Shown: piece by piece, positions 1 through 28,784 of the stretch
Layout of the letters: every line of letters starts with the position of its first letter
How positions within the stretch are numbered: the stretch's first letter is position 1
Assembly (NCBI GenBank): GCA_021787535.1
Contig: JAJYLR010000001.1
Coordinates: 83,648-147,647 of the forward strand
DNA: 64,000 nucleotides
Direction: 5' to 3'
From: a bacterium
Lineage (GTDB): Bacteria; Patescibacteriota; CPR2; UBA1875; JAJYID01
The notes under the pieces: generated by a model
What the model saw: only the letters and a program-made list of their open reading frames with translations
Database searches by the model: none
Told to the model about the DNA's origin: nothing
Program-made: the position numbers and the translations under genes

Positions 1-2251
1 GTTTACTTTCGCCAACACTGATATAATTTTTAACTTCAGTATCACCCTTGTCGCCAACTGTTAAATCATTAATCTCTTTTTTAAAAGTTTCACGAATAGT
101 TTTTATTACCTCTGGCTCTGATAAATTTCTTAGGATATTCAAATCGAGCAGATCCACCCGTTTAATAAATAAATGATTTTGAATGAATTCTTTAACCTTG
201 CCAAAAAGAACGTCATAGCAATTGAATAATCTCAAATCGCGCATAATGGTTTGGGCAAAGAAGCCAACTACTCTTTGATAGTCTGGCGTTGTATTTGAAT
301 CCAATGTCAAAGAATGGTGAACTTCCTCGCTAACAACGTCTTTAAAAACTATTTCCTTCTTTTCCGTCTCACTAAATTCTTTAATGGGTAATTTATGATT
401 TGGAAATTTAGAAAGGTCAAGATCAGCTAAATTTTTATATTCTCGCTGGATTCTAGGAGATAATACCGGTAGTTCGATATCAAGTTTGTGCAGATCTTTT
501 TTTGAGTTTTCGCTATCTACTTCGATCACAATTGGAGCAATCGGTTTGGAGCCGACGGACATTTGGCGCTTTTCAAGGACAACACCCTCGCCTTTGATTG
601 ATTCGACAAAATCCATAAAAGCCGGCGTTCCAATAACGCTTACATATTCCTCAATAATATCTTGTCCAAAAAACATTCTTCTTAAACCTCGTCCCAGTGT
701 TTGTTCCGGCAAGATATTGCTTTTTGAAGAATAAGCTCTTAAACCAACGATTGTTGTTACGTTTTTTACGTCCCAACCTTCTTTAAGCATAAGGACCGAA
801 ATTATTGCCTTATATTTGCTGCTCCAGCCATCAATTGCGTTAGCTTGTTTTCTAAGCTCGATAAGTTCTTTTTCATCTTTACCCTTAACGCTTTCTGAAA
901 TATCACCGCTTTTGTTGGTGTGAATTGTGAGAACGGCATTTCTCATTTCATGAAAATTCTTTTCCAGATATTCCGCCACGTCATCACAATTTTTGGTGTC
1001 ATCAGTCATTACAAAAAGGATTGATTTCTTTCCGGCTTTCTCAAGCTCCTTGTATGTTTTACGCCATTCTTCGATGCCAAGGTTTAAATATTCTTCATAT
1101 TTTTCAGAAAAAACTGAGCTTTGTTTTTCTGTGAGTTTGCCTCGGCTGGCTTGATCCGGCACAACGGGTTTTTTAACAATTTGCTGATGTATGGCTTCAA
1201 CTAGGGGATAGTCAGATATAATCTGAACGAATATATTTCCATTATGATGTTTTGGAGTTGCCGTAACATCGATTTGCAAAGCAAGCTCGCCGCCTTTAAG
1301 TTTTAGCTGATTGTGAATATCTTGAATGGATTTAAACCAAGCTAATTTATCATCATGAATATGATGAGCTTCGTCATTTATTACGATCAGCTCATCGATA
1401 TCTCGCACAATTTTGCCAAGGTCTGTTTTTGACGCATTTGTTTTAGTAACCGGCTTATCTCCTAAGAAATAATTTGAAGTGTCTTCATCCTCTGGGCCTG
1501 GATCTTTAATATCTCCTTCAAAGACCCGATGAATATTAGTTAGAAATATGTTTCCGGTTTCAGAAATTGGGCCAACCTCGTCCTGCAAATGTAGTGTTAT
1601 TTGAAAATCGTCTTGCCAGTTTTGTCCGTGATAACCATTATCCGGTAAAATTGGATCTTCATAAAAGATTTTTAATCCTTCAAAATCTGTTTTAATTCTT
1701 TCTAGCACAATGATGTTCGGGGTAATGAGGAGAAAGTTTTTGGCTAAGCCAGAATCTGGCTCATAGAGTTTATGGAAATAGGCCCAGGTCAAAATTAGAC
1801 TCATAGTTTTTGTCTTGCCACTGCCGGTTGCCATTTTGATTACAAAACGCAGCCAATCTTCGGGAAACATATTTGGACTGACACGGCCGAGAGAATCATA
1901 TCGCAAAAGATCATATTTGCTTTTTACTTTTGCTACGTCATATAACCAAATAACGGTTTCGACTGCTTCTCTTTGAGCAAAGTAATATTGGAAAGGGGTA
2001 GCAACGCCATTTCTACCAAGAATATTATGTTCTTCCTTAAACCACCAGTTTAAGAGCGCTCTTGAAGTCTCTGTCGCTCCTTTATAATGATTGTCACGCC
2101 ATTCCTTTACTTGTTTACGAAGCTCAGGGACAAAAGGAGGCAAGAGCTTCTGGTATCCTTGCTCACGTAAATCTTCAGCCGCCGGAAACCAACGAATTCC
2201 CGGATCTAAGATTTCAAATGGGTTTTTGGGGAAATTTTTATGAAGTGCCAT
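1..2251 (-). CDS. Type III restriction endonuclease Res subunit (SF2 helicase-nuclease). Partial: the C-terminus runs off the window start. Not in the ORF track because there is no stop codon inside the window.
   Basis: Manual minus-strand translation from the ATG at 2251-2249 gives MALHKNFPKNPFEILDPGIRWFPAAEDLREQGYQ... with helicase motif I KMATGSGKTKTM and the DEAH box INDEAHHIH. It reads in frame to position 1. It lies immediately downstream of the Mod gene and the small gene. Confidence 0.75.
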   Translation of the reverse strand, partial: MALHKNFPKNPFEILDPGIRWFPAAEDLREQGYQKLLPPFVPELRKQVKEWRDNHYKGATETSRALLNWWFKEEHNILGRNGVATPFQYYFAQREAVETVIWLYDVAKVKSKYDLLRYDSLGRVSPNMFPEDWLRFVIKMATGSGKTKTMSLILTWAYFHKLYEPDSGLAKNFLLITPNIIVLERIKTDFEGLKIFYEDPILPDNGYHGQNWQDDFQITLHLQDEVGPISETGNIFLTNIHRVFEGDIKDPGPEDEDTSNYFLGDKPVTKTNASKTDLGKIVRDIDELIVINDEAHHIHDDKLAWFKSIQDIHNQLKLKGGELALQIDVTATPKHHNGNIFVQIISDYPLVEAIHQQIVKKPVVPDQASRGKLTEKQSSVFSEKYEEYLNLGIEEWRKTYKELEKAGKKSILFVMTDDTKNCDDVAEYLEKNFHEMRNAVLTIHTNKSGDISESVKGKDEKELIELRKQANAIDGWSSKYKAIISVLMLKEGWDVKNVTTIVGLRAYSSKSNILPEQTLGRGLRRMFFGQDIIEEYVSVIGTPAFMDFVESIKGEGVVLEKRQMSVGSKPIAPIVIEVDSENSKKDLHKLDIELPVLSPRIQREYKNLADLDLSKFPNHKLPIKEFSETEKKEIVFKDVVSEEVHHSLTLDSNTTPDYQRVVGFFAQTIMRDLRLFNCYDVLFGKVKEFIQNHLFIKRVDLLDLNILRNLSEPEVIKTIRETFKKEINDLTVGDKGDTEVKNYISVGESK

Positions 2252-2253
2252 TG

Positions 2254-2913
2254 CTATCCTTGAGATGCTATCTTACTTATTTTCTCTAATGCGGAAGTTC
2301 CAGATAATATTTTTACAGAGTCTATTGCAGCTTTAATTTGTTGAGAAAGAACTAAAGGTGATATGAACCATTGTTTGTTTAAAATGTTTGTTATTTTTTT
2401 CCATTCATCAATAGCGTTTTCTTCTAACTTCTGTAATTCAATGTCTTTGTTTTTTTTATCATTAATTTTATCGAATGCTTTTTGATTTAGATCGACTAGT
2501 TTTTGTATGCCAACATTTACTTGGCTATGAAACATTGAGTATAATACTTTGTCATGTTCACTAATGCGATCATCTAGTATCTGACATGAATTATAAAAAT
2601 CATTTACTAGTTCGTACTCATCGGAACTCAATTTTTTAATAAAAATATGACCATAATCTTTCCAACTATTTTTAGGTAGTAGTCGTTCAGGAATTAAGGT
2701 AGTTCCATTAAAATTGAAGTTCTTTAAAACCGAGATTACTCTCTGTGCGTTTAATACTTCAGATAAAATTGTTTCGGCGGCCTCGCGCCTTTTATTTTTT
2801 TGATATGTCTGAAATCGCCAAATAGCAACAAAAATCGACATCAAAGCTAGTATGCCAGTTGATTGATCGCTAAATATCCATTTTGCTATCTCAATGACAG
2901 GAATATTAATCAT
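2254..2913 (-). CDS. Hypothetical membrane-anchored protein (219 aa) inserted between mod and res of the Type III R-M operon
   Basis: ORF with an N-terminal hydrophobic segment ([12 protein letters not shown]) followed by a charged, coiled-coil-like region. Its start overlaps the mod stop (ATGA at 2910-2913). Its stop at 2254-2256 lies 2 nt before the res ATG, which suggests translational coupling. Confidence 0.5.
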
Positions 2914-5075
2914 ACATTCACCTCAATAACTTTCGTCGTATCGTTGCCAAAGATATCGACAACTTTTACAGCAATTTTATATTTTCCAGGAAGAACTTCT
3001 TTTGAAGAGGAAATTAATTCTAAATTTCTATTTTTCTTTGTTCTGAAAGATTGCCACTCATTTTCAAAGATGTAATTGCCGGTCCAGACTTCTTCAATCT
3101 CACCATTTTCTTTTTGTCGTGCCATTATTTCTTTTTTACTTGCGAAGTTAAAGTCTATCGCCCAGTAATCAACCCAATCTGCCCAATGTTTTGTTAAAAT
3201 TTCTCGTTCAATAATCCCTGATGCTTTATCTTTTGTAAGTTTAATGACCTTGCCGTCCTCAATAGCAATCTTGCTGCTTCCGGCTGATAATTTTTCTTCG
3301 ATTTCTCCCGTGTTTTCTTGGTTATAAAAAACGCTAAAATCAGTTAGCTCAATGGCGATTGTTTTTTTCTTAACAACTGGTTTTACCTCGATGTATGCCA
3401 CGTCATAAAATTTAACTTGGCCCTTTTCGACTGCTTTTCGGTCAAACACTTCTCGGGGAATAACTTTAAATTGTAGGTCTACGCCTCTTTGTCGTATTTC
3501 TGAAAAGTCTATTCCCATTTCGTAATCAAAACCCAAAATATCAGCTTTTAGAATTTCTTTTTCTCTGCATTCGGTTACAACATCTTCAATAAAGCTTGAG
3601 GTAATTGGATTATCGATTGGACCGACTGCAACCAAACGGTCTCTCTTCTTTCCTACAAAAGAAGTAAAAGAATCAACTGGCTCTGCCTTGTAAGCAGCCA
3701 AGATAAGTTTGATAAACTCCTTTTCTTTCCTCTCCAAAACTTTTGCTCTCTGTTCTTTTCTCAAATCCATCCCAGATGAAACATAATATTCGCGTTCATA
3801 CTTTCCGATATTTAAAATCTCGAACGGACGAAAATTTTTACCTGCTTTCTTTAATTCTCTCTGAATCCCAATCATTCTTTTTCTGGTTGTATGAATTGAG
3901 AATCTGCCAAGGTCAGATCCAATCCACTTCCTGCCAAGCTTTTCTGCCACCGCGAGCGTTGTGCCAGATCCACAAAAAAAATCAGCTATGATATCACCTT
4001 CACTGGAAGAGGCTTTCATGATACGTTCTAATAATTTTTCTGGTTTTTGGGTTGGATAATCTACTTTTTCTCTCAGGTCCTTAGGATCAACCGCCTTAAC
4101 ATTCCATACAGAATCTACTGTATTTCCTTCTATTCTTAAAATCACATCATTTGGTCCTGGTTTTCTGTGGTTTTCCTTTAGAAATCTATTATAGTAACCC
4201 TTAAATCGTGAGTCTGTTTTTGGATAATTTGCACCGGTAATCTCATTGTTTTCATTTAAATATTGGTTCCACCTTGTAAAGTCAATCGTTTGTTCGGGAT
4301 TTTCATCCTTCAAAAGATGAAAAATAGGGCTGTCAGTTTTACTATAAATAAGAATAGTATCATGTTTACGTGGAAAGTAGTTTTTAACCTGCCCCTGGTA
4401 TGTTTGATAATGCCAAACGATCTCATTTCTAAACATTTCTCTCCCCAACAATTCATCAAGAATAATTTTAATATAACTATTTACCCTATAATCGCAGTGA
4501 ACATAAATACTGCCATCATCAGCAAGCAGATCACGCATGAGCGAAAGGCGTTCGTAAATCATTGAGATAAAGCTATCGGCACCCTTGCCCCAAGTATCAC
4601 GGTAGGCGATTTCTTCTATCACTGAAGGCTTTTTTGTAAATGATTCATCGCCAATTTCAATATTCATTGAAAAGTCGGCGCCAACATCAAATGGCGGATC
4701 TATGTAGATAAGTTTCAGTCCGCCCTGAGCTTCTATTTCTCTCCTTAATGGTCCGTTTTTGAGCGATGAAAGAATGAGTTTGTTGTCACCCCAAATGAGT
4801 TTATTCGTCCAATCTTGTATTTGCTGACCGGAAGTATCAAAAAGTTGAACTTGACGATCTCTTTGCTCTTCGCTTCGAGGCTCGTCGATATGTTCAATGG
4901 TTTGGAATGGTAATACTAGATTAGTAATCTCATTTGTTTTTCCATTCCAAATAAGCTCAACCTCTCGCTTATCTTCAAACAAAAGAAAACGATATTTGTC
5001 AGGAAGATGTTTTCCTTTCTCCAAATATTTTCTTACATCTCTTTTTTCATTATCACTGAGATCTAGATTTGCCAC
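2910..5075 (-). CDS. Type III R-M system Mod subunit (beta-class N6-adenine/N4-cytosine DNA methyltransferase)
   Basis: Motif [15 protein letters not shown] comes before motif [14 protein letters not shown], the beta-class order. Size is 721 aa, with a central region consistent with a target-recognition domain, and res is adjacent. Confidence 0.85.
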
Positions 5076-5336
5076 CTTGAAAACCCCTTATCGTCTTATT
5101 GTTAGCTTAATTTTAGCATTTCTAAGCGTAAAAATAAAGAATGAAGTCGTGTAATTGCGAGTTCTCCTCCTGCCATTTCTTCAAGTATATGAACAGGTCT
5201 AGCCAAGTCAAGGTAGTCTAAGATAGTTTTCTTAGCTCCACCTTAGACTTGCCCAGCGTGCTGTTCCTCTCCTTTTGATCAAAGGCGGAGGTCGAACCGC
5301 TTTTGAAGTACTGAGTTAATTGAAAGGAGAGACAAG

Positions 5337-5648
5337 ATGTGTAATCAAGTTTCTAAAGTAGCTTTGCTTAACGATCAGTTCAGAAGATCGGGCCAAGGAG
5401 TAACCTTGACTTGCGATGTGGCGGAAATAGCTGATCTGTCCGGACTGATGAAGAAAGTCCGCTCATTCAAGGAATTTAATAAAAATAACGATCCTTGGAA
5501 TGAGCATGACTTTGGAAGACTGAATTGGAAAGGTGAAAGGGTCTTCTGGAAAATCGACTATTTCAACAAGACTCTTGATGAATGGGAAGATCCGCTATCT
5601 CCCGACTGTAAAAGGCTAATGACCGTGATGCTCGCTGAAGATTACTAG
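5337..5648 (+). CDS. Hypothetical 103-aa protein with a WNEHDFGRL motif, reminiscent of small plasmid-borne DUF3768-type proteins
   Basis: ORF followed by a hairpin plus T-run terminator. The DUF3768 family guess is from memory of an HDFG motif only. Confidence 0.35.
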   Translation: MCNQVSKVALLNDQFRRSGQGVTLTCDVAEIADLSGLMKKVRSFKEFNKNNDPWNEHDFGRLNWKGERVFWKIDYFNKTLDEWEDPLSPDCKRLMTVMLAEDY

Positions 5649-5671
5649 AAGCTAAACAGCCAAACAAATTA

Positions 5672-5707
5672 AGCCCTGAGAGTTTAGGCTCTTGGGGCTT
5701 TTTTTGT
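5672..5707 (+). terminator. Rho-independent terminator
   Basis: aagccc-tgagagtttaggctcttg-gggctt hairpin followed by tttttttg. Confidence 0.6.
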
Positions 5708-5814
5708 GGCTGGGGTTAATTGATTGTAAATGAGCTTTCATAAAAACTTCAGGCCGCCCTGTAGGGCGGCCTTGATTGGTGCGTGTTTTTGCTGGGGCAG
5801 CAGCGAACTTTCGA

Positions 5815-6369
5815 TTACCGATTCCATATAGATCTAATACCGACTGAATTCATATATTTACTTTGTTCACGAATATGGCCGATTAACCGATGAACAACAC
5901 TATTAAGACGTTCATCGTGTACTCTCTGTCCCTCATTATAAAGATCTTGATATAGGGCACCGAACACTAAAGCCAACTCGTAATGTGCTCTCGGAACCTC
6001 TTGACCAGACCCAGCGGAGTCGAGATCGTTTATGGCAACAAATGATCCTTTGCAAAACCACTTGTTGCAAAAATCCCACCACTCTCCTGTTATCTTACTT
6101 ATCTGGGAAGGTGCGAGGTGTTGATAACCAAAAGCTCCCCTGATGGGAATCGGGCAAAAGGGGTACTCAGTGTAGAAATGAACACTCGTCAGATTTAAGG
6201 GATTAGTGGTAGTTGTGCACAAGTTGAGCAAATCTACCCTGACCATTCCATGAAGGTCAGTGACTCCATCATGGAAAAACTTAACGCGAATTATTATTTT
6301 CTTTTCAAGTGTTTTTAGGAGACTATTATTTAGCTGTGCTGTTTTCATCCGCGTCCTTTCAATCACCAT
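5815..6369 (-). CDS. Hypothetical protein (184 aa)
   Basis: Clean ORF with no recognisable motifs, sitting inside the accessory block. Confidence 0.4.
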   Translation of the reverse strand: MVIERTRMKTAQLNNSLLKTLEKKIIIRVKFFHDGVTDLHGMVRVDLLNLCTTTTNPLNLTSVHFYTEYPFCPIPIRGAFGYQHLAPSQISKITGEWWDFCNKWFCKGSFVAINDLDSAGSGQEVPRAHYELALVFGALYQDLYNEGQRVHDERLNSVVHRLIGHIREQSKYMNSVGIRSIWNR

Positions 6370-6675
6370 TGGAATTTCACCAGTTGGCTATGATAAGGTT
6401 CTGGCCGTTTGAATCACCATTGGACTAATCCAGATGGCTATCTGGCCCTGACAACTCTCCTGCCCGAGAGTACAAGGATTATACTATATTTAAGCCATTT
6501 CCTCAACCCTGATTTGTAACTCGAATATAAAGAAGAGTTATCCTGAAATTTCTCATTATTTTTGTAACCTAGCTTTAAATAAGTTTTGAAGAGACGAACA
6601 AAATAAAACTCCCAAAACGGGAGTTTATTTGAAACTTGTTTAAAGATTGGTGGCAAATGCACCATATAACCATAG

Positions 6676-7443
6676 TTATATTCTCTTCCATATATCCCCG
6701 GTAAGGCCAAACTGCCTTGCCTTGGCTTCGGTCGTCAAATGGATTGCCAGTTCCGGTTCATCCAACAGGGCAAGTCTGGTTTTGAAATAGCGCTTCACAT
6801 AAGTTAGTACGTCGTTGCTTGGGCAGATTATCAAAATAGTTGGAAAGTCCGTTTCTGTCTCAGCTTCCCAGTCGCTCCACTGATAAAAAGAAAGATATTT
6901 TCTGACTCTTTGCCTTAATCTTTCCTTTGGCACATTGTAAAGTATCTCCAAGAAATAATCTTTGGTTTGATTCTTGGTCGTTTGCCGAATATAGGCGGTT
7001 GGCGAGAGGTCTTTCAAGAGTTCCCCCGAGGGGTGATTATCATACTCGCTTTTCACACTCACTTCGAATCTCACTTTCCGGCTGTCTCTGTTTGTTAGAT
7101 CAAGGCAAATGTCGGCAAGCAAAAGACAGGAATTTATGAAAGAAACTGATCTTTCATTTTCCCTGTAATATTTCTGGACTGTTTTGACAGATATATTTTT
7201 ATGCTCCTTTAAATAACGGATGCCGGCTTTGGCGAGATGGTACACGGCCGGCTGAGTGTTTTTGCAAGAAGGCTTAATATATTCTTTTTTGCTCAAGTCT
7301 TTCAGCCACCTGTTTATTCCTGCTTCATCTTTATGACGCAAAAATCTTTGGATCTGAATGCGATTTAAGAACCTGTAACGAAATAAAAGAGATATAATCT
7401 CTCCCTGCCTTTTGGTTATGTCTGTTTCTTCTGTGTTAGCCAT
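6676..7443 (-). CDS. Replication-relaxation family protein (winged-helix, plasmid/ICE-associated)
   Basis: The N-terminus TDITKRQGEIISLLFRYRFLNRIQIQRFL is typical of the replication-relaxation family. It is 255 aa and adjacent to the coupling-ATPase gene. Confidence 0.5.
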   Translation of the reverse strand: MANTEETDITKRQGEIISLLFRYRFLNRIQIQRFLRHKDEAGINRWLKDLSKKEYIKPSCKNTQPAVYHLAKAGIRYLKEHKNISVKTVQKYYRENERSVSFINSCLLLADICLDLTNRDSRKVRFEVSVKSEYDNHPSGELLKDLSPTAYIRQTTKNQTKDYFLEILYNVPKERLRQRVRKYLSFYQWSDWEAETETDFPTILIICPSNDVLTYVKRYFKTRLALLDEPELAIHLTTEAKARQFGLTGDIWKRI

Positions 7444-7584
7444 TGGTTTAATTGTTCTTTCAAAAATGGATATATTAGCTTATACAATTCTGCCAATCCC
7501 TTCCTGCACCTTTCTTGTATGGGTAGAGGTAAAAGAATTAAGATGTTTTGAACTTGAAAATTGCAAATTTTTGTCGCAGCAAGA

Positions 7585-10422
7585 TTACTTTGGGAGGAGC
7601 TCTTCTTCGTCTTTTTCGGTCAGCTCGCCAAGCTCCGGATTGCCTTTACTAACAATGGATTTAATCTCTTTAACTTCTTGTTGGACGGCTTTCTTTTCTT
7701 TGATTTGGTTGATTTTAGCCGCGTATCTTTTCCTGGACTCTCTGATCACGGCTTGGGCGGTCTTCGGATCCGCCTTAACCTTGAAATCGTAAGAGCCGGC
7801 CAGAAAACTGTCTTCGGCTTTTCCGACTGCGACCTTCATATAGAAGCGGTATAAGGGGAGATTTGCGATTTCATATTTTGAAACTTCCGGGGAAAAGATG
7901 GGCAGAATAAATTGTTCGTCTTCCGGATTGGCTGTCCTAAAACAGATGACCGTGCCGACATTGGCTAAAATCACTTTAACGATATCCCTGTTCTCTATTT
8001 GCGAGACAGACTGGTGAGCCATAACAACTGAGAGCCGGTATTTGCGGGCTTCTGAGACCAGCTCGGCAAAAGTATTGGTGGCGAAGTTCTGAAACTCATC
8101 GACATATAAAAAGAAGTCTTTTCTTTTTTCTTCGCTGGTTCGGGCTCTTTTTAAAGCGGCCAATTGAATCTTGGCAATGACAAGGGAGCCGAAGAAACTG
8201 GACTCGTCTTCGCCGATTTTGCCTTTTGACAGATCGCAGAGCAAAATCTTTCCCGAATCCATCGCTTCTTCAAAGTCCAGCTTTGAATGAACTTGAGTTA
8301 AGATATTGTAATTGATCGGAGAAGCAAGCAGGCCGCCGATTTTATTGGTAATCGGCGAAATCACCGAGTTTCGCTGCAATGCTCCCAGTTTCTCGAACTC
8401 GTAAGTCCAGTAATCCTTTAAGACCTCATTATCCAGGTTTTTCACGATCTCTTTTCGGTATCTGGTTTTGGTGAGCAGATCAAGGACCGTCTTTAAAGTC
8501 GGGTCTTTTGTTTCAAGAGCCGTCAGGATTGTATTTCTAAGGACGTACTCCATTCTCGGCCCGAAGAACTTGGCGTCGTAGAACTTTTGGATAATGGAGA
8601 TAATCGAGCTTGTGACCAAAGACTTTTGTTTTTGGAGCTGGCTTAGAGTCTGCTCTTTGTCTTTTGGCAGTTCCAGTAAGTTTAAAGCTATCGGGTAAGC
8701 GTCATCATCGGGGGCAAACCAAATGACATCCTTGGCTCTTTCTTTGGGAATCGCTTTTAATATTTCCTCGACCAGCTGTCCGTGAGGGTCAATGACGCCG
8801 ACGCCCTTGCCGGCTTTAATGTCATTTAAGATCATATTGGCCAATAGGGTGGTTTTGCCCGAGCCGGTCGCCCCCAGAATATATGTGTGCCTTCTTCTTT
8901 CTTCCAGCGTTTGGCCGATGGGCGTCTCTGTCCCGCCGTAAGTGTTTTTGGCAAAAACATTGTCGAACTTGGTGGCGCTTTTCTTGAAGGAAAGCGGAGC
9001 TGAAAGCTCGGAGCTTTTAGCTTTCACTAAATCTTCTGTTCTGGCAAGCGAATGCGGAAAATGATAAAGGCCGGCCAGTTCTGAGACTGAGAGAATCGGG
9101 TTTGAGAATGCCGCGAGCCGGCGGCCGGCAAGGTTGCTTAGCGTCCATTGATTGAATAAGGGAAGGCTTAGCTTCTTGAGTAATGACTGATGAGCATTAG
9201 ACAGGCCATGGAGGGAAGCTAAAAAGCCTGAAGTCCTAAGATCATAGTCAGCGCTTGAATCCGTTTTGGCAAACATCCTGATTGAAGTTTCAAACATGGG
9301 CTGATCTGTTTTGCCTTTGACCTTATCCCTTAACTCCTGCTCGATAGGATTTGCCACATTCTCATTTGAATGCGGTTTGTTAATGACATAAAGATCGGTC
9401 GGACCGTCGTTAAGAATATAGGTAGCCATTTTCAGCGGAATCTTAATGAACCAGGCCAAAGCCAGGAGCAAGGCTTTGGCTATCGCAAGCGGAGTAGCCA
9501 AGGCTTTTTCAAAAGGTGTTTTAAAAAGTTCTCCGCTTAACGGTTCGTTTCTAAGCATGGACACGTTCAGCTTTCTAATTCGCTTTAATACTCCCTTGTG
9601 AGTTGACTTTTTGACCGGAGTAACCACTATCTGAAAAACCATCAGCTCGCCGTCTTTTAATTTGGTCATCTGGCCTGTAAGATAGGCGATTTGATCATGC
9701 TCTTTTAAGCTGCCTTGCTCTTCCAGGGGCAAAGCAAAGTCGCTTGCCAGCTTTAGCTCGGTTACGCCTTCTTTAGTTTGGCTTTTTTTGCCGGCAATGT
9801 CATTTGATATATAGTCCTTCACCTTGGTCACCTTCAGCCCCGGCATAAACGACAGCAGGGATTTTTCAATAATCGGCGCTTCTTTTTTTGATATTCCCAA
9901 GATATATCTGATCCCTTCTTCTTTTGAGGCCGTTATCTCAAACGCATATCTTTTCTTGTACCTCAGAAGTTTATATACCCCTCTATTTTGCCTGGCCAGC
10001 GAATGCAGATGGGTGAAGAGCTGTTTGGTGGCGTAAGGTGTTTTGTCGGTACGGGCCGGAAAGACCAGTTCAAGATAGGTGAGCGGTTCTTTTTTGGACA
10101 GCCGGTTTAACAAGTATCTTTTCAGGAGATATATGCCGATTAGGATGAGGATGATTATGAGGATAAAGCCCGGGAATGAAAAGTGAGAGGCAGAGAGATT
10201 ATTTAGCCATTCAAAAAAGGCCAGCTTCCAGCTGATCGGCCCGGGAATGATAACGATTGTATAGAGAAAAGCTTTTTGCAGGCCGGTCAGTGGAGCGTTA
10301 TGCTTAAGAGCAAGCAAAAGACCGGTTGCAAACTTGCCGTCGTGAGGCGAAGGCGTATAGCCGGTTAGCATTTTGTTCTGAGACGAAGAAAGAAGGATTT
10401 GAGTTAAAGAAAAAGATTTCAT
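7585..10422 (-). CDS. VirD4/TraD/TraG-type coupling-protein-like P-loop ATPase (FtsK/HerA superfamily) with an N-terminal membrane anchor
   Basis: Two N-terminal TM segments are followed by an unusual ~400-aa spacer. Then come Walker A ILGATGSGKTTLL, Walker B FFLYVDEFQNF and the MAHQSVSQI motif characteristic of type IV coupling proteins. Confidence 0.6.
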   Translation of the reverse strand: MKSFSLTQILLSSSQNKMLTGYTPSPHDGKFATGLLLALKHNAPLTGLQKAFLYTIVIIPGPISWKLAFFEWLNNLSASHFSFPGFILIIILILIGIYLLKRYLLNRLSKKEPLTYLELVFPARTDKTPYATKQLFTHLHSLARQNRGVYKLLRYKKRYAFEITASKEEGIRYILGISKKEAPIIEKSLLSFMPGLKVTKVKDYISNDIAGKKSQTKEGVTELKLASDFALPLEEQGSLKEHDQIAYLTGQMTKLKDGELMVFQIVVTPVKKSTHKGVLKRIRKLNVSMLRNEPLSGELFKTPFEKALATPLAIAKALLLALAWFIKIPLKMATYILNDGPTDLYVINKPHSNENVANPIEQELRDKVKGKTDQPMFETSIRMFAKTDSSADYDLRTSGFLASLHGLSNAHQSLLKKLSLPLFNQWTLSNLAGRRLAAFSNPILSVSELAGLYHFPHSLARTEDLVKAKSSELSAPLSFKKSATKFDNVFAKNTYGGTETPIGQTLEERRRHTYILGATGSGKTTLLANMILNDIKAGKGVGVIDPHGQLVEEILKAIPKERAKDVIWFAPDDDAYPIALNLLELPKDKEQTLSQLQKQKSLVTSSIISIIQKFYDAKFFGPRMEYVLRNTILTALETKDPTLKTVLDLLTKTRYRKEIVKNLDNEVLKDYWTYEFEKLGALQRNSVISPITNKIGGLLASPINYNILTQVHSKLDFEEAMDSGKILLCDLSKGKIGEDESSFFGSLVIAKIQLAALKRARTSEEKRKDFFLYVDEFQNFATNTFAELVSEARKYRLSVVMAHQSVSQIENRDIVKVILANVGTVICFRTANPEDEQFILPIFSPEVSKYEIANLPLYRFYMKVAVGKAEDSFLAGSYDFKVKADPKTAQAVIRESRKRYAAKINQIKEKKAVQQEVKEIKSIVSKGNPELGELTEKDEEELLPK

Positions 10423-10544
10423 CTTTAAAACTCCAACCCTCCTTAATTTAAGGACAGCATAACAAATATGGGGCCAAACGGCAATTGTTTTTTGCTGTCA
10501 AAAATGGGTTTTTAGAGATATAATTGAAGGCGTGAGGAGGAAGA

Positions 10545-23162: not shown

Positions 23163-26100
23163 ATGTACAGTGTGACTAAGGTATCAATTATCAAGCTTTT
23201 TATAGCAGCAGCTATCCTGATTATTGCGGGTTATCTTGCTGTTTATGAACTTACTCTCCACCAGGTGTATCAAAAATACAAAGCACAGCAAACTTCAGGC
23301 GGAAACATTCCTGTTTCAAATACTGACCTCTCCAAAGATTACGTTTCTCTAAAGGGCGGCAACCCTCAAGCCGGCGCTATCAATGTTAGCGGTGATATTG
23401 CCGGCAATGATGTCCAGGGGCAAACCATTACCTCAACCGTTCAGAATGGAACATCTCCGCTTAATGTCACTTCATCAACCTTAGTTAACAACCTTAATGC
23501 TGACATGGTGGACGGCAAGCACGCAGATGAATTAACCAAAACAACCGTAAACAATATTACAAACACTACAACAGGTGAATCTATCCAGCCGGGAACAACA
23601 GGCCAATACTACCGCGGCGATAAATCCTGGCAGACCTTAAATTCTTCTGCTGTCGGTCTTGGAAATGTCGAGAATACAGCTCTTTCGACATGGACGGGAT
23701 CAAACCAAGTTGCCATTTTAGGAACCGTCACTTCCGGAACCTGGAACGCTGGTGCAATCAACGCGGCCGGTTCTATTACCGGTACAGCTCTCCAAGGCAC
23801 ATCTCTAAACCTTGGCTCTGGCACTATTATCGCAGGAACTATCAATGGCGCAACTATCTCGGGAGGCACATTATCCGGCGGCAATATTTCAGGCGGAACA
23901 GTGCAGGGCGGAACTCTTTCTTCAACTGCCGTCAATGGCGTAACTACAGCAAATATCTTAATCAACACCGGCTCATACTCTGACCCGTCATGGCTACAAG
24001 GTCTTGCCGGTTCAAAGATTACCGGAGATATATCAGGAAATGCCAGTGGCCTTACCGGCACACCAAATATCACCGTCGGTACCATTAGCTCCGGAAATAT
24101 TACATCTTCAGGGACGCTTAGTATTACAGGAACAGGGAATTCATCGGTAGCTGGGAATTTAGGTGTTAACAGTTTACTTACGCCGGAAAGTCTTGGGCCT
24201 GAGCTCGATCCAAACCCTACGCTTGATAACAATTGTAACGGCTGGACAATAGGAGGCCCGGATTGGGTATGCCACGGCAACTATTACTCGCATGATTCTT
24301 ACGGAACCAGCTATACTTATTTAACTAATGGGATACCATCTGTAATCGGACAAGTCTATAAGCTGACTTTCACGGTATCCGGCTACTCTGCGGGAAGCTT
24401 CGATTTCTATGTTGCGGGAGATAGAACGCCTACCATAACAGCAAATGGCACTTATACTTTTTATCTTAAAGCGCGCTATGCCAATGATTGGTTCTTTCCA
24501 GAACAAACTGCGAACTCTCTTTTTGCATTAGATAACATCTACCTCGAGGCGCAAAACGCGCTACCCGTATATTCAACAATAACTGCCGGCGATGTAGTAA
24601 CAAGAGGCGGATCAAAAACTGATGTTAGGGCATTTGGCGCAAAATGCGACGGCGTGACGGATGATTCAGCTGCAATTCAAGCAGCTGAAGATAGTCTGCC
24701 TTATAACGGCGGTACGTTATTCTTTCCGGCGGGTACCTGTATTGGTCATTTCACGGTCAAATCCAATGTCCACATCATGGGCAGCGGCATTGAAGCTACT
24801 GTTTTAAAATTGCCCAATGGTGCCAATACTGACGTGATTAATACGCAAGATTTTAATAACCTAACGGGTACTGATAGTCAAAGAGGTGCCTTAAGGGTGA
24901 CTCTTGAAAATATAACTTTAGATGGCAACAAAGGTAACAATTCCAGCGGATATTGTCTCAAAAAGTACGGTGCTCAATGGAATATCCATGATACTGTTTT
25001 CAGAAACGGCGCAAGCGGAGGTATGTATGCAGAATGGGGAACTTATCTGGGCATACCTTATGGCGCTGACTCTATGGAGGATAAATGGAGTAATATCTGG
25101 GTTCATGATAACAATGGCGCTTACGCTATTTGGATGAAAGGACCCCATGATAGCGTAATGACAAACTCGCTAATATATGCAAATGCCGGCAGCGGAATTT
25201 TTATAGATCATTCAGGGAGTACGTTTAATGGCGGGGGATTAACTATCAATGATACGCATATTTGGGGCAACTCCACCACTGGTTATGGCATTCTCTCAGA
25301 TACGGCGCTTCGAATGAACGGAGATATCGTTGAAGGAGAAAGCGGCAGCGGCGGTGTAGGGATTAGGATGTACCAAAATTACGATACAGGTGTCCTTACT
25401 GCTACCAATCTCGAGATTTTTGGCAACGAAACTGGCATATTACTCGATGCAAATACCCAGAGAAACAATATTTCTGGTGTCTATGTGCATGAAAATACAA
25501 ATGGCATTAAGGTTTTAAGCAATGAAAATAACATAACCGGAGCTTTAATTACCTGGCAAACTTCAGGTACGGGCTTAATTATGGGTGACGGAACTCATGT
25601 TGTTTCCAATAACAATATTGAAGGAAAGTTTTATAATAATGCAACCAGCATTAATTGGGGCAATCCTTCAAACACTAACGATTCTATTGATGCTTTGATA
25701 TCGACATCAGGCGGACAAACTGCTCTTTCGGGTAGCCCCTCAAGCACTAACAAGTTAAATATCTTGTCAGCAGGTTCTGGCGCCAATACTTCACTTACCA
25801 ATATTGCCGGTCAATTATCCATTGAGTCCGCCCAAACCTCTGGCAATCTCACCACGATCGCAGCACCCTCTGCCGTAACTGCAACGGGTGACATTGTAGG
25901 CCAGAGAATTGATCTCCGAAGTAACTACACGATTTCTAATCATCAGGTAACAGGATCATGGCTATCTATGCCGAATGTGACAAACTCCAGTGCAACCAGT
26001 GCGTGGTACAATGCATACTATGTTGATGGCGGTTCACTGCAAAATGCCGGTATAGGCAATGATTATTGGACGGGTTTTGGTTACCAAGAACCCAACATTA

Positions 26101-28784
26101 CAACCACATCATCGGGTTCAATAACATCAGTCGGCATAGAACTTTATAAACCGAGCACGATCAGCGGAGCCAATGCTCATAACTATAGTATTATAGTTGA
26201 TCCCGGCGCGGGCAATGTCGGCATCGGTACCACAGCGCCAGCTAGTCTTTTAACTGTAAATGCTCCGGTGACGACTGATAGTTCCACGGTAACTGCCATG
26301 ATTACCTCGGCTAATGCCGCCAACAAAGGGCTGGTAGTCCAAGGTTATACTTCTCAAACAGCTGATTTAATCCAGGCACAGAGTTCGCTTGGAGCGGTGC
26401 TTTTTAGTGTTGATAATTCAGGCAACATTACAACTAGCGGTAATACCGCCAAAACAATCGCAGAGGCGCGCAATACTTCAAATGCTGCGGGAAACAATCT
26501 GACGGTGCAGAGCGGCGGGGCATACGCTGGCGGTACCGATCTAAATGGCGGAAACCTGATAGCTGCCTCGGGTATTTCCACGGGACTCGGGTCGTCTAAC
26601 ATCTATCTTCAGACAGCTTCGGGTACAGGGTCTATTTCGAGCGTTAATGCAACTCCGACGACAAGCGGCAGCGGCTATAGTTTGAATGATATTTTGACTA
26701 TTTCGGAAGGTTCCGGGGGACAGGTTAAAGTTACAGGCGTCAGCAGCGGCCAGGTTACTGCTGTGACTTTGTATGCCGCTGGCATTGGCTATACAACAGG
26801 GACAGGCAAGGTGACTACCGGAGGTACGGGGACGGGTTGTTCGATTAATATTACAGGTGTGTCGAGCGGGACAACCGATCAAACGCCGAGCACAAAGATG
26901 ACCATTCTAGGAAACGGGAATGTCGGCATAGGCACCACGGCTCCCGGTGCCAAACTGACAATCCAGGGGAATGCTGTCAACAACGGCGCTGCTCCAATTA
27001 TGGAAATTCAAGACAGCACCGGAGCCGAACTCTTCAGAATTAATGCAAATGTAGTAGACAACCTCTTCATCGGCAACTCAGCTGGTAATGCCATTCAGAC
27101 GCCGGGTGTTTCCACTCAAGGGCTCTATGATACATTTATCGGCACTTATTCCGGTATGCATAATACCACAGGACACTACAACACCTTTATCGGTAACAGA
27201 TCGGGATCGGAGGATACAACCGGCGATCACAACACCGCGATCGGGATGCAAAGCGGGTACAATATTACCACCGGACAATATAATACTTATCTAGGAATAA
27301 CTGCCGGTCAGGATGGGACGACTGCCAATCACAATGTTGCTATAGGCGACTATGCGGGTATAGGCAATGTCAACGGCGATAAAAATATCTTTGTCGGTAG
27401 TTACTCTGGCTACAACCGGCTGATGGGTATCGGGGAGATATTACAAGGTTACAATGCCGGCAGTTCCGGCAAGTCCGGCGGGTACAACATTAGTCTAGGA
27501 GTAAACTCTCTGTATAATGATTATGATGGTATCGGCAATGTTTCCTTAGGCACTTATTCGCTGTTTAGCAATAAATCCTCGACAGATAAGTCGATTACGG
27601 GCTTTGCCAACTATTCAGGCAGTGAAAAGGTCACTACCTTAAACCCTCATGGGCTGGCAGTCGGCGACTCTGTATATATTACCTTTAACTCAATGGCATC
27701 AACTGAACTGACGCATAGTGCGCTCTATACGGTACAAAGTGTGATAGATGCCAATGACTTTACTATTGCCAGAACATACGACTCTGCCAATGACCTGAAG
27801 GGCTACTGGGAAAGAGGTGCCACACTTTCAGATAACGGCAGCGGCAAGGTGAGAGTAACTTCAAACAACCATGGCGTGCCAAACGGAGGCCTTGTTATCC
27901 TTGGAGGAACGGGAGCAAATTCATCTTATGATGGTATGCATACAGCTACGCTTATAGATGCAAACCATTTCGATCTGACGGATTTAACTTATTCATCCAG
28001 CTATACAACGGGCTGGTTTGAATACGAGCCGCAATCAGGGAATAACACCGCTGTCGGAAGCTATGCCGGCTATGCCAATACAACCGGCTATAATAATACT
28101 TTTCTTGGCTACAATGCCGGCAATGCCGGCACGACAGGCACGCTGCAGAATGCTGCGGCTATCGGATATAACGCCCAAGTTACGGAAAGCAATGCTATAG
28201 TCTTGGGCGGTACGGGCTCAAGTGCGGTCAATGTTGGCATTGGCACAACTGCCCCGGGTGCTAACCTGGAGATTGATAGCAATGCTGCAGGTACTATCGT
28301 TCAGATCATTAAGGCGTATTCCGGTCAGACCGCAGATCTTTTGGAGATCCAGGGCTCTGATACCAGCGTTTTAGCGAAGATTGATGCATCCGGCAACCTG
28401 ACGGCAAAGGCCGCATCATTTACCGGAACACTCACCGTGACAGGTCACTTTAAATCAACCCAAACAACAGCTCCGACGATAGGTACGCCGACAAGCTGCG
28501 GTACGACACCGACTGCTGCAGTGACTGCCGGTTCAACCGACTCAGCTGGATCATTAACCATCACTGCCGGTACTGGTGCTCCTGGTAACTGCGCTGCTCA
28601 AATAACCTTTAATACTGCCTATGGCGCTGCCCCTAAGTCAATTATTCTGACGCCAAGTACTGCAACCGGTCCGGCTAAACAAGCATATATTTCTGCTAGT
28701 TCTGCTACCACATTCACAGTTACATTTGGAACGGCTCCGACTGCTTCTGAAGCTAATACTTTCTACTACTGGGTTGTAGAATGA
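23163..28784 (+). CDS. Giant surface protein (1873 aa) with an N-terminal signal-anchor, a pectate-lyase-superfamily right-handed beta-helix (tailspike/depolymerase-like) and tail-fibre-like NTxxG repeats
   Basis: VRAFGAKCDGVTDDSAAIQAAEDSLPYNGGTLFFPAGTC is the hallmark N-terminus of the pectate-lyase-3 beta-helix family. Repeated xNTxxGxxAG units lie between aa ~1300 and 1480. The N-terminus is hydrophobic: IIKLFIAAAILIIAGYLAVY. Confidence 0.8.
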   Translation: MYSVTKVSIIKLFIAAAILIIAGYLAVYELTLHQVYQKYKAQQTSGGNIPVSNTDLSKDYVSLKGGNPQAGAINVSGDIAGNDVQGQTITSTVQNGTSPLNVTSSTLVNNLNADMVDGKHADELTKTTVNNITNTTTGESIQPGTTGQYYRGDKSWQTLNSSAVGLGNVENTALSTWTGSNQVAILGTVTSGTWNAGAINAAGSITGTALQGTSLNLGSGTIIAGTINGATISGGTLSGGNISGGTVQGGTLSSTAVNGVTTANILINTGSYSDPSWLQGLAGSKITGDISGNASGLTGTPNITVGTISSGNITSSGTLSITGTGNSSVAGNLGVNSLLTPESLGPELDPNPTLDNNCNGWTIGGPDWVCHGNYYSHDSYGTSYTYLTNGIPSVIGQVYKLTFTVSGYSAGSFDFYVAGDRTPTITANGTYTFYLKARYANDWFFPEQTANSLFALDNIYLEAQNALPVYSTITAGDVVTRGGSKTDVRAFGAKCDGVTDDSAAIQAAEDSLPYNGGTLFFPAGTCIGHFTVKSNVHIMGSGIEATVLKLPNGANTDVINTQDFNNLTGTDSQRGALRVTLENITLDGNKGNNSSGYCLKKYGAQWNIHDTVFRNGASGGMYAEWGTYLGIPYGADSMEDKWSNIWVHDNNGAYAIWMKGPHDSVMTNSLIYANAGSGIFIDHSGSTFNGGGLTINDTHIWGNSTTGYGILSDTALRMNGDIVEGESGSGGVGIRMYQNYDTGVLTATNLEIFGNETGILLDANTQRNNISGVYVHENTNGIKVLSNENNITGALITWQTSGTGLIMGDGTHVVSNNNIEGKFYNNATSINWGNPSNTNDSIDALISTSGGQTALSGSPSSTNKLNILSAGSGANTSLTNIAGQLSIESAQTSGNLTTIAAPSAVTATGDIVGQRIDLRSNYTISNHQVTGSWLSMPNVTNSSATSAWYNAYYVDGGSLQNAGIGNDYWTGFGYQEPNITTTSSGSITSVGIELYKPSTISGANAHNYSIIVDPGAGNVGIGTTAPASLLTVNAPVTTDSSTVTAMITSANAANKGLVVQGYTSQTADLIQAQSSLGAVLFSVDNSGNITTSGNTAKTIAEARNTSNAAGNNLTVQSGGAYAGGTDLNGGNLIAASGISTGLGSSNIYLQTASGTGSISSVNATPTTSGSGYSLNDILTISEGSGGQVKVTGVSSGQVTAVTLYAAGIGYTTGTGKVTTGGTGTGCSINITGVSSGTTDQTPSTKMTILGNGNVGIGTTAPGAKLTIQGNAVNNGAAPIMEIQDSTGAELFRINANVVDNLFIGNSAGNAIQTPGVSTQGLYDTFIGTYSGMHNTTGHYNTFIGNRSGSEDTTGDHNTAIGMQSGYNITTGQYNTYLGITAGQDGTTANHNVAIGDYAGIGNVNGDKNIFVGSYSGYNRLMGIGEILQGYNAGSSGKSGGYNISLGVNSLYNDYDGIGNVSLGTYSLFSNKSSTDKSITGFANYSGSEKVTTLNPHGLAVGDSVYITFNSMASTELTHSALYTVQSVIDANDFTIARTYDSANDLKGYWERGATLSDNGSGKVRVTSNNHGVPNGGLVILGGTGANSSYDGMHTATLIDANHFDLTDLTYSSSYTTGWFEYEPQSGNNTAVGSYAGYANTTGYNNTFLGYNAGNAGTTGTLQNAAAIGYNAQVTESNAIVLGGTGSSAVNVGIGTTAPGANLEIDSNAAGTIVQIIKAYSGQTADLLEIQGSDTSVLAKIDASGNLTAKAASFTGTLTVTGHFKSTQTTAPTIGTPTSCGTTPTAAVTAGSTDSAGSLTITAGTGAPGNCAAQITFNTAYGAAPKSIILTPSTATGPAKQAYISASSATTFTVTFGTAPTASEANTFYYWVVE
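23403..23800. repeat. 398-bp tract 100% identical to 29102-29499 in the downstream paralog (recent gene conversion or duplication)
   Basis: Base-by-base comparison of the two listings across all lines in this interval. Flanks diverge immediately at 23402/29101 and at 23801/29500. Confidence 0.9.

Follow-up and report, generated by a model that had tools for sequence, protein, structure and literature searches.

A restriction-modification (R-M) operon of Type III-like organization in a patescibacterial genome raises the question of why a third gene should stand between the two that encode the modification (Mod) and restriction (Res) subunits. The operon opens the window, by which we mean the whole stretch of 64,000 nucleotides analysed here (contig JAJYLR010000001.1 of assembly GCA_021787535.1, positions 83,648 to 147,647), and is read from its minus strand in the order mod (5075–2910), ORF219 (2913–2254), an open reading frame (ORF) of 219 amino acids, and res (2251 to beyond position 1), the three genes forming one tightly packed unit. 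This order and these coordinates were first put forward in an original prediction made without database searches; they hold on re-reading, and a Type III-like mod–res operon with a genuine, tightly coupled third gene is supported. Judged by sequence comparison, ORF219 is not part of the Mod–Res enzyme. The best explanation, which we hold with moderate confidence, is that it is an embedded and co-expressed accessory gene, probably defensive, carried as cargo in a slot of this Type III operon.

ORF219 (minus strand) is closely coupled to its neighbours on both sides, as originally described. Its ATG shares 4 nt with the TGA of mod (ATGA, 2913–2910), and its stop codon (TAG, 2256–2254) is followed, after a gap of 2 nt, by the ATG of res at 2251. 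Shine–Dalgarno sequences were read directly from the minus strand 5 nt before each start codon: GAGGTG (2919–2924), within the 3′ end of mod, for ORF219, and AAGGA (2257–2261), within the 3′ end of ORF219, for res. The candidate operon promoter, a sigma-70-like TTGACT-16-TATACT (5184–5211, minus strand), is the best match on its strand and lies ~110 nt upstream of mod, and no terminator-like site was found by consensus scan between mod, ORF219 and res; these scans report consensus matches only, and promoter-site counts in the region are at chance level. As far as expression can be read from sequence, the three genes form one transcription unit. The GC content of ORF219 is 0.305 (GC3 0.241), compared with 0.366 for mod and 0.367 for res.

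The nature of the junction emerges from related loci. Homologues of Res number more than 8000, the top ones being 70–82% identical and mostly from Patescibacteria (candidate phyla radiation, CPR). The best 80 of at least 564 genome loci, from species-representative genomes, were surveyed, and mod and res were located in each. The two genes are co-oriented in 69 of the 80. In 20 of these 69 loci mod abuts res (with a gap of -1 to 6 nt in 18 of the 20), and in the other 49 (71%) one to four same-strand ORFs lie between them. The three-gene arrangement is not an oddity of one locus but one instance of a slot that most loci of the lineage fill, and the survey of Type III loci proposed with the original prediction finds no occupant related to ORF219 in the others. 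The cargo amounts to 75 ORFs in 44 BLAST clusters, 33 of them singletons, and same-strand ORFs cover a median of 98% of the interval. The junction from mod to cargo is no longer than 10 nt in 39 of the 49 loci, including 18 exact 4-nt overlaps as in the window, and that from cargo to res is equally short in 28. By its recognizable domains the cargo is typical of defence, abortive-infection and toxin systems. It includes NYN nucleases in nine loci, often with a KTSC protein (five loci); Schlafen AlbA_2 + HATPase_c_4 proteins in eight loci; AAA_15/AAA_21 ABC ATPases matching AriA, PtuA, GajA, AbiLi and several PDC and HEC candidates of PADLOC; DUF3800, DUF4145, DUF4411, PIN, HEPN_Apea and HEPN-like integron domains; and Clp and trypsin-like proteases, Peptidase_M78 with HTH, WYL and Bro-N.

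The cargo turns over much faster than the flanking genes diverge. This follows from mean Res identities that are nearly equal for pairs of loci with a common cargo cluster (0.739) and for all others (0.715), and from Res pairs of 93–95% identity that differ in cargo or have none (e.g. L013/L017 and L028/L072). The nearest Res neighbour has the same cargo state in just 14 of the 69 loci. When the window operon was compared with seven relatives by blastn, a DNA identity of 67–75% stopped at the last base of mod and resumed at the ATG of res, and the ORF219 segment had no DNA match in the loci of these relatives. In the two loci whose Res is most similar (82 and 80% identical), the slot holds unrelated genes of 255 and 184 amino acids, both with an Rx4H motif that appears HEPN-like by eye and that Pfam did not confirm. 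Single-sequence search, profile search and hhalign detected no ORF219-family member in the other 68 loci; remote homology of the family to the other slot cargo was likewise rejected, as the profile search was negative and all hhalign probabilities were below 17%. ORF219 thus lies between the genes of a defence system, on the same strand, and is replaced among orthologous systems, as embedded genes are. This pattern would fit cassette exchange through recombination in the conserved flanks. As a separate observation, Res sequences 85–97% identical occur across bins labelled as different phyla (L003–L082; Res at about 6001–8690 in most), the labels comprising Patescibacteria lineages, 'Gammaproteobacteria', 'Planctomycetales', Bdellovibrionales, Vampirovibrio and a 'Pacearchaeota' bin; either the R-M module is transferred horizontally very often, or bins have been mislabelled or contaminated.

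ORF219 is a real gene and not a chance ORF, because it belongs to a protein family and yields a confident structure model. The opposite view, that it is a spurious ORF in an unusually long mod–res spacer, could draw on its low GC content and on a word-indexed search of 5.8 billion proteins, which retrieved only ORF219 itself. It is refuted by an exhaustive HMMER scan of 1.84 billion cluster representatives, which recovered 320 relatives at E ≤ 1e-3 (33 at ≤ 1e-10), all of about 200–240 amino acids and aligned end to end, by a family profile that scores ORF219 at 1.4e-45 and by an AlphaFold2 model with a predicted local distance difference test (pLDDT) score of 92.4; together with the Shine–Dalgarno sequence and the ATGA overlap, these leave it practically no probability. 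Absence from orthologous loci, which the original prediction would have taken as a sign of a spurious ORF, is literally what was found (none of the 68 others), but that consequence does not hold, since the family and the model show a real gene.

An alignment of 80 family members reveals a hydrophobic N-terminal helix, followed by a helix with the pattern AAxIILxEIRxAE, a block LPxNSWxKYxHLF...DExxxINxFYxxC with an invariant tryptophan (W84) and a C-terminal T..G.KLKKIA motif. The only near-invariant residues are A46, E52, A56, E57, W84, F91 and F106, and two conserved glutamates sit on the helix adjoining the membrane anchor. The model built from this alignment is all-helical (predicted template-modelling score 0.81), with helices at residues 18–64, 83–91, 97–152, 156–179, 187–199 and 207–217. 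The predicted anchor, at about residues 18–34 (2812–2862, minus strand), is indicated by hydropathy and flank charge, and the model helix continues unbroken to residue 64. The Kyte–Doolittle 19-mer score is 1.60 for ORF219 against a median of 1.97 for 139 family members, and in these members the mean net charge is +2.1 in the 15 residues after the hydrophobic core compared with -0.2 before it. Because the flank after the core is positive, a single N-out/C-in anchor with a cytoplasmic helical domain is predicted. Of the 'membrane-anchored coiled-coil' protein proposed originally, the anchor is plausible, but 'coiled-coil' is better replaced by a long-helix bundle.

The profile search recommended for identifying the protein did not name it. 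Pfam, NCBIfam and PADLOC gave no match to ORF219 above noise, and 80 relatives scanned singly gave nothing consistent (DUF2059 was matched in only 4 of the 80); no match was returned by a PDB sequence profile search or from a phage collection. Foldseek searches of PDB and BFVD yielded only generic long helices (BAR, ClyA, HlyD and PspA; TM-score <0.4, E >0.03), and the fold of the family would perhaps have no PDB counterpart. Several candidate identities were considered and rejected. Known membrane defence effectors in PADLOC (CBASS 1TM/2TM, ZorA and similar) gave isolated weak matches only, the 1TM effector at E=0.033 in ORF219 alone, and no model was matched by more than two of the 80 family members. 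A HEPN domain was discarded, as the RISEH sequence (Rx3H) of ORF219 is not conserved in the family, and a PrrC/RloC-type or HEPN abortive-infection (Abi) nuclease was set aside in the absence of any ATPase or HEPN match or conserved Rx4-6H in ORF219 or 80 relatives.

The embedding of this family in an R-M operon recurs beyond the window. Twelve independent family contexts were examined, a small sample with no background control. One Type I operon, whose stop and start codons overlap, has the order hsdM (split)-157-178-hsdS-104aa-member-hsdR; the family member in it stands directly upstream of hsdR, a position like that in the window. The hsdM gene of that operon is split into ORFs of 340 and 179 amino acids (L093:1625-3183; N6_Mtase positions 2–153 and 169–310), which could reflect a frameshift, an assembly error or a phase switch. 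One relative follows, four genes downstream and on the same strand, a cluster of a Type IIG methyltransferase (MTase) and DUF4145; another shares a contig of roughly 7.7 kb with a GmrSD Type IV enzyme four genes away; a third adjoins a convergent DEAD/ResIII helicase of 1158 amino acids. In the accessory region of a Cetobacterium somerae prophage, a relative (profile E=8.7e-28) is located between ATPase genes and the terminase, and a fragment of a relative neighbours a protein with an RDESAH motif (HEPN-like). Contexts with no recognizable defence neighbour include a position between tuf and rpsJ and others near RarA/baeRF, after a small GIY-YIG gene and beside radical-SAM/GNAT/DnaG genes. The association of the family with defence and mobile genes is at most suggestive. 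One subfamily has a translationally coupled upstream partner, a soluble coiled-coil protein of 104–106 amino acids that is 69–73% identical between loci (L088:6690-7004, L092:4732-5052 and L093:5523-5837), with which it forms a mobile two-gene module. Two further observations concern family members elsewhere: contigs of 5.5–7.8 kb with an ORF219 relative, GmrSD and DUF1771 resemble mutual circular permutations (L101 versus L102–L105), which suggests a small circular plasmid- or phage-like element found in many sequencing runs, and a metagenome scan with the query P0296 gave a single fragment.

The genes on either side of the slot have the composition of a Type III system, with mod upstream of res, PF01555 and an internal target-recognition domain (TRD) in Mod, and a ResIII/DEAH helicase joined to a C-terminal PD-(D/E)xK domain in Res. 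Mod (2910–5075, minus strand; 721 amino acids, GTG start) is a β-class DNA methyltransferase that matches PF01555 (2.4e-45) and the PADLOC model MTase_III (2.6e-113) and is homologous to EcoP15I Mod (4zcf_A, 3.6e-14); the β-class assignment follows from its motif order, as DPPF (motif IV) precedes FCGSG (motif I), with a variable domain between them. The central variable segment (4034–4426, minus strand), presumably the TRD, has no DNA homology to the nearest relatives: the blastn alignments to L097, L098, L003 and L004 break at about operon nucleotides 650–1040/1090, and both flanks are 69–75% identical. The segment looks like a swapped TRD and hence points to a different recognition sequence. 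The window contains the first 750 of the 900 codons of res (1–2251, minus strand), an SF2 DEAH helicase gene whose PD-ExK nuclease domain lies beyond the window start. The intactness of Res had been left as a point to check, and the gene proves complete on the parent contig, where it encodes 900 amino acids with a C-terminal PD-ExK/RE_endonuc domain and the sequences VINDEAHH and PDFLV...IIETKG. Res matches ResIII (1.6e-17) and its best NCBIfam match is partial, to the BPTD_3080 family; a PDB sequence search returned no match and thus no close relative. By homology, Mod and Res would form a Type III enzyme in which Mod modifies a single strand of an asymmetric site and Res serves as an ATP-driven helicase-nuclease that cuts unmodified DNA. 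Type III systems are defined biochemically by hemimethylation through Mod and by an ATP-dependent cleavage for which two unmethylated sites in inverse orientation are required.

The operon is set among genes of a mobile element. On one side are a type IV secretion system (T4SS) coupling protein of 945 amino acids (7585-10422, minus strand; DUF8128/DUF87/TrwB), a Replic_Relax protein (6676-7443, minus strand) and DUF3768 (5337-5648, plus strand). On the other side, on the parent contig, res is separated from a large serine recombinase by two small predicted membrane proteins with N-terminal hydrophobic segments and no Pfam match (L001:13460-14119, plus strand, 219 amino acids; L001:14135-14680, minus strand, 181 amino acids) and an HTH_3 regulator; the recombinase is followed by HU, YmdB and RNase Y. 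Paralogy of ORF219 with the equally long 219-amino-acid gene downstream of res was rejected on comparison. Because the coupling-protein/Replic_Relax block and the recombinase flank the operon, its gene content suggests carriage on an integrative, probably mobilizable, element of roughly 15 kb. The GC content is 0.42–0.50 over 5250–10500 and falls to 0.33 beyond 10750, and in the related locus L098 the coupling protein is again a neighbour, together with RT, PLD and PD-ExK genes. A 158-nt inverted repeat, 96% complementary (L001:15213-15370 and L001:16874-17031), brackets the recombinase gene (L001:15505-17037), its right arm being the 3′ end of that gene; the repeat could mark a segment capable of inversion or what is left of a second copy of the recombinase. 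Elsewhere in the window an ORF of 1873 amino acids is found at 23163-28784 (plus strand), and no Rfam family reached its gathering score across the 64 kb.

These observations can be combined into a model of the locus. The slot, bounded exactly by the stop codon of mod and the start codon of res, would be a site that a widely transferred, Patescibacteria-centred R-M lineage either leaves empty or fills with fast-turning, mostly defence-type genes that are co-oriented and usually translationally coupled, and ORF219 would be its present cargo. The encoded protein, with one N-terminal helix predicted in the membrane and an all-helical domain facing the cytoplasm, would be a second-line accessory that travels with the R-M operon, being expressed and inherited together with it. 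By analogy with the genes embedded in other methylation-based systems, it probably provides a second layer of defence or exclusion that is independent of DNA methylation. Its mode of action at the membrane is speculative, an abortive-infection or exclusion-type factor being the most likely form. Several points weigh against this account. The family contexts are few and lack a background test, and about half of the twelve show no recognizable defence neighbour; ORF219 in the window lacks the 104–106-amino-acid partner; its own anchor is marginal; the family has no catalytic motif, Pfam or PADLOC match or structural analogue; some singleton cargo ORFs are unverified gene calls; and the argument for a defence role is built from sequence, model and analogy.

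Other roles for ORF219 have to be set against a defensive one. The original prediction offered a specificity role, an anti-phage accessory or an intercepted insertion. Specificity is the option to be dropped, as it sits in the TRD of Mod, which is itself swapped between relatives; the other two together match the evidence. If ORF219 were instead a functional third component of the Type III system, it might tether Mod–Res to the membrane where DNA enters or act as a regulator or assembly factor of Res. Translational coupling on both sides, the family member immediately ahead of hsdR in a Type I operon and the predicted cytoplasmic helical domain, which could bind a partner, would all be in keeping with such a function. 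ORF219 is nevertheless absent from all 68 other orthologous loci, in 20 of which mod abuts res; moreover, the Res and Mod flanks are conserved at 63–82% whatever the cargo, most family members are solo and far from any R-M system, and in Type I loci the R-subunit junction also hosts unrelated embedded systems (PMC12255303). We therefore regard this role as very unlikely.

It is quite unlikely, too, that ORF219 serves the integrative element rather than host defence, through entry exclusion, superinfection exclusion or another membrane function. Exclusion proteins are typically small membrane proteins, the operon stands between the coupling-protein/Replic_Relax pair and the recombinase, and family members are known from a prophage and a small element; many others nonetheless occupy non-mobile chromosomal contexts, it is the R-M genes, and not the element, that delimit the slot, and its other occupants are nucleases and ATPases typical of defence. 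A neutral passenger, that is, a lineage-typical membrane protein with a housekeeping or other cellular role that was trapped by recombination, is unlikely but agrees with a family that is widespread, mostly solo, devoid of a defence hallmark and represented once between tuf and rpsJ. The start/stop overlap and Shine–Dalgarno sequences point instead to selection for expression, a Type I operon has independently taken up a member of the family, and most embedded genes are not housekeeping genes (Payne et al., 2024 preprint; 10.1101/2024.01.29.577857). An accessory and probably defensive cargo gene is thus the reading that we retain.

A broader proposition can be offered only tentatively, and we consider it rather doubtful as a whole: the mod–res junction may be a cassette slot dedicated to defence genes, equivalent in Type III systems to the embedding sites of Type I and BREX, and the ORF219 family may be a new kind of membrane-anchored protein that acts against phages or plasmids and has a fold outside PDB. 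A dedicated slot, if real, would give direct access to dozens of defence candidates in organisms with almost unexplored immunity, the Patescibacteria being ultra-small episymbionts whose immunity is poorly known. Embedding of defence genes in defence operons has been a productive route to new immune systems, and the slot offers a ready list of candidates in 44 unrelated clusters, many of them unannotated. The survey of the slot is in this respect more valuable than ORF219 itself, which remains a candidate; its family (320 clusters, a confident helical model and no Foldseek match in PDB or BFVD) is worth testing. For the annotation of this locus, the practical point is to avoid labelling ORF219 a subunit of the R-M system.

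Comparison with known systems places the locus among several precedents. It resembles EcoP15I and EcoPI in its homologous Mod, the order of mod and res and a Res that combines a DEAH helicase with a PD-ExK nuclease; it differs in that Res is too divergent for a PDB sequence match and in that no gene intervenes between mod and res in the classical systems. Type III operons of more than two genes have been described, as some systems have a conserved helicase-like SF2 ATPase gene 5′ of mod (Murray et al., 2021; PMC8259958). That third gene is conserved and upstream of mod, whereas the slot of ORF219 is variable and internal to mod–res, and ORF219 is non-enzymatic as judged from its sequence. The anticodon nucleases PrrC and RloC are linked to Type I R-M loci, with a presumed role as a back-up should restriction be overcome (PMC12707154). 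ORF219 is likewise an accessory gene beside the R subunit gene of an R-M operon; PrrC and RloC, however, are soluble ABC-ATPase/HEPN-type tRNases, whereas ORF219 has neither an ATPase nor a conserved Rx4-6H and is predicted to be membrane-anchored.

The closest parallel is provided by the genes embedded in Type I R-M, BREX, DISARM and Hma operons, which are mostly defence genes ('guilt-by-embedding'; Payne et al., 2024 preprint; 10.1101/2024.01.29.577857). Examples are TgvAB in a Type I operon of Vibrio cholerae (PMC11411939) and DarTG2 between hsdS and hsdR in enteropathogenic Escherichia coli (PMC12255303). Systems that were predicted from embedding show a weaker association with further defence systems elsewhere in the genome (10.1101/2024.01.29.577857), which matches the mostly solo distribution of the ORF219 family. 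Embedding itself is therefore known, in the searchable literature for these four kinds of system and not for Type III, where the only extra gene described is the conserved ATPase gene 5′ of mod; variable cargo between mod and res was found nowhere in a literature that can be searched only incompletely, and appears to be previously undescribed. The ORF219 family matches no PDC or HEC model; several other slot occupants match PADLOC models of these classes that were derived from the work of Payne et al. The slot shares with the Type I, BREX, DISARM and Hma cases same-strand cargo inside a methylation-based system, variable presence and a diverse, mostly defence-type repertoire. It is distinguished from them by its Type III (mod–res) host, which lay outside that survey (10.1101/2024.01.29.577857), by its 71% occupancy, by a Patescibacteria-centred lineage and by boundaries that coincide with a stop and a start codon.

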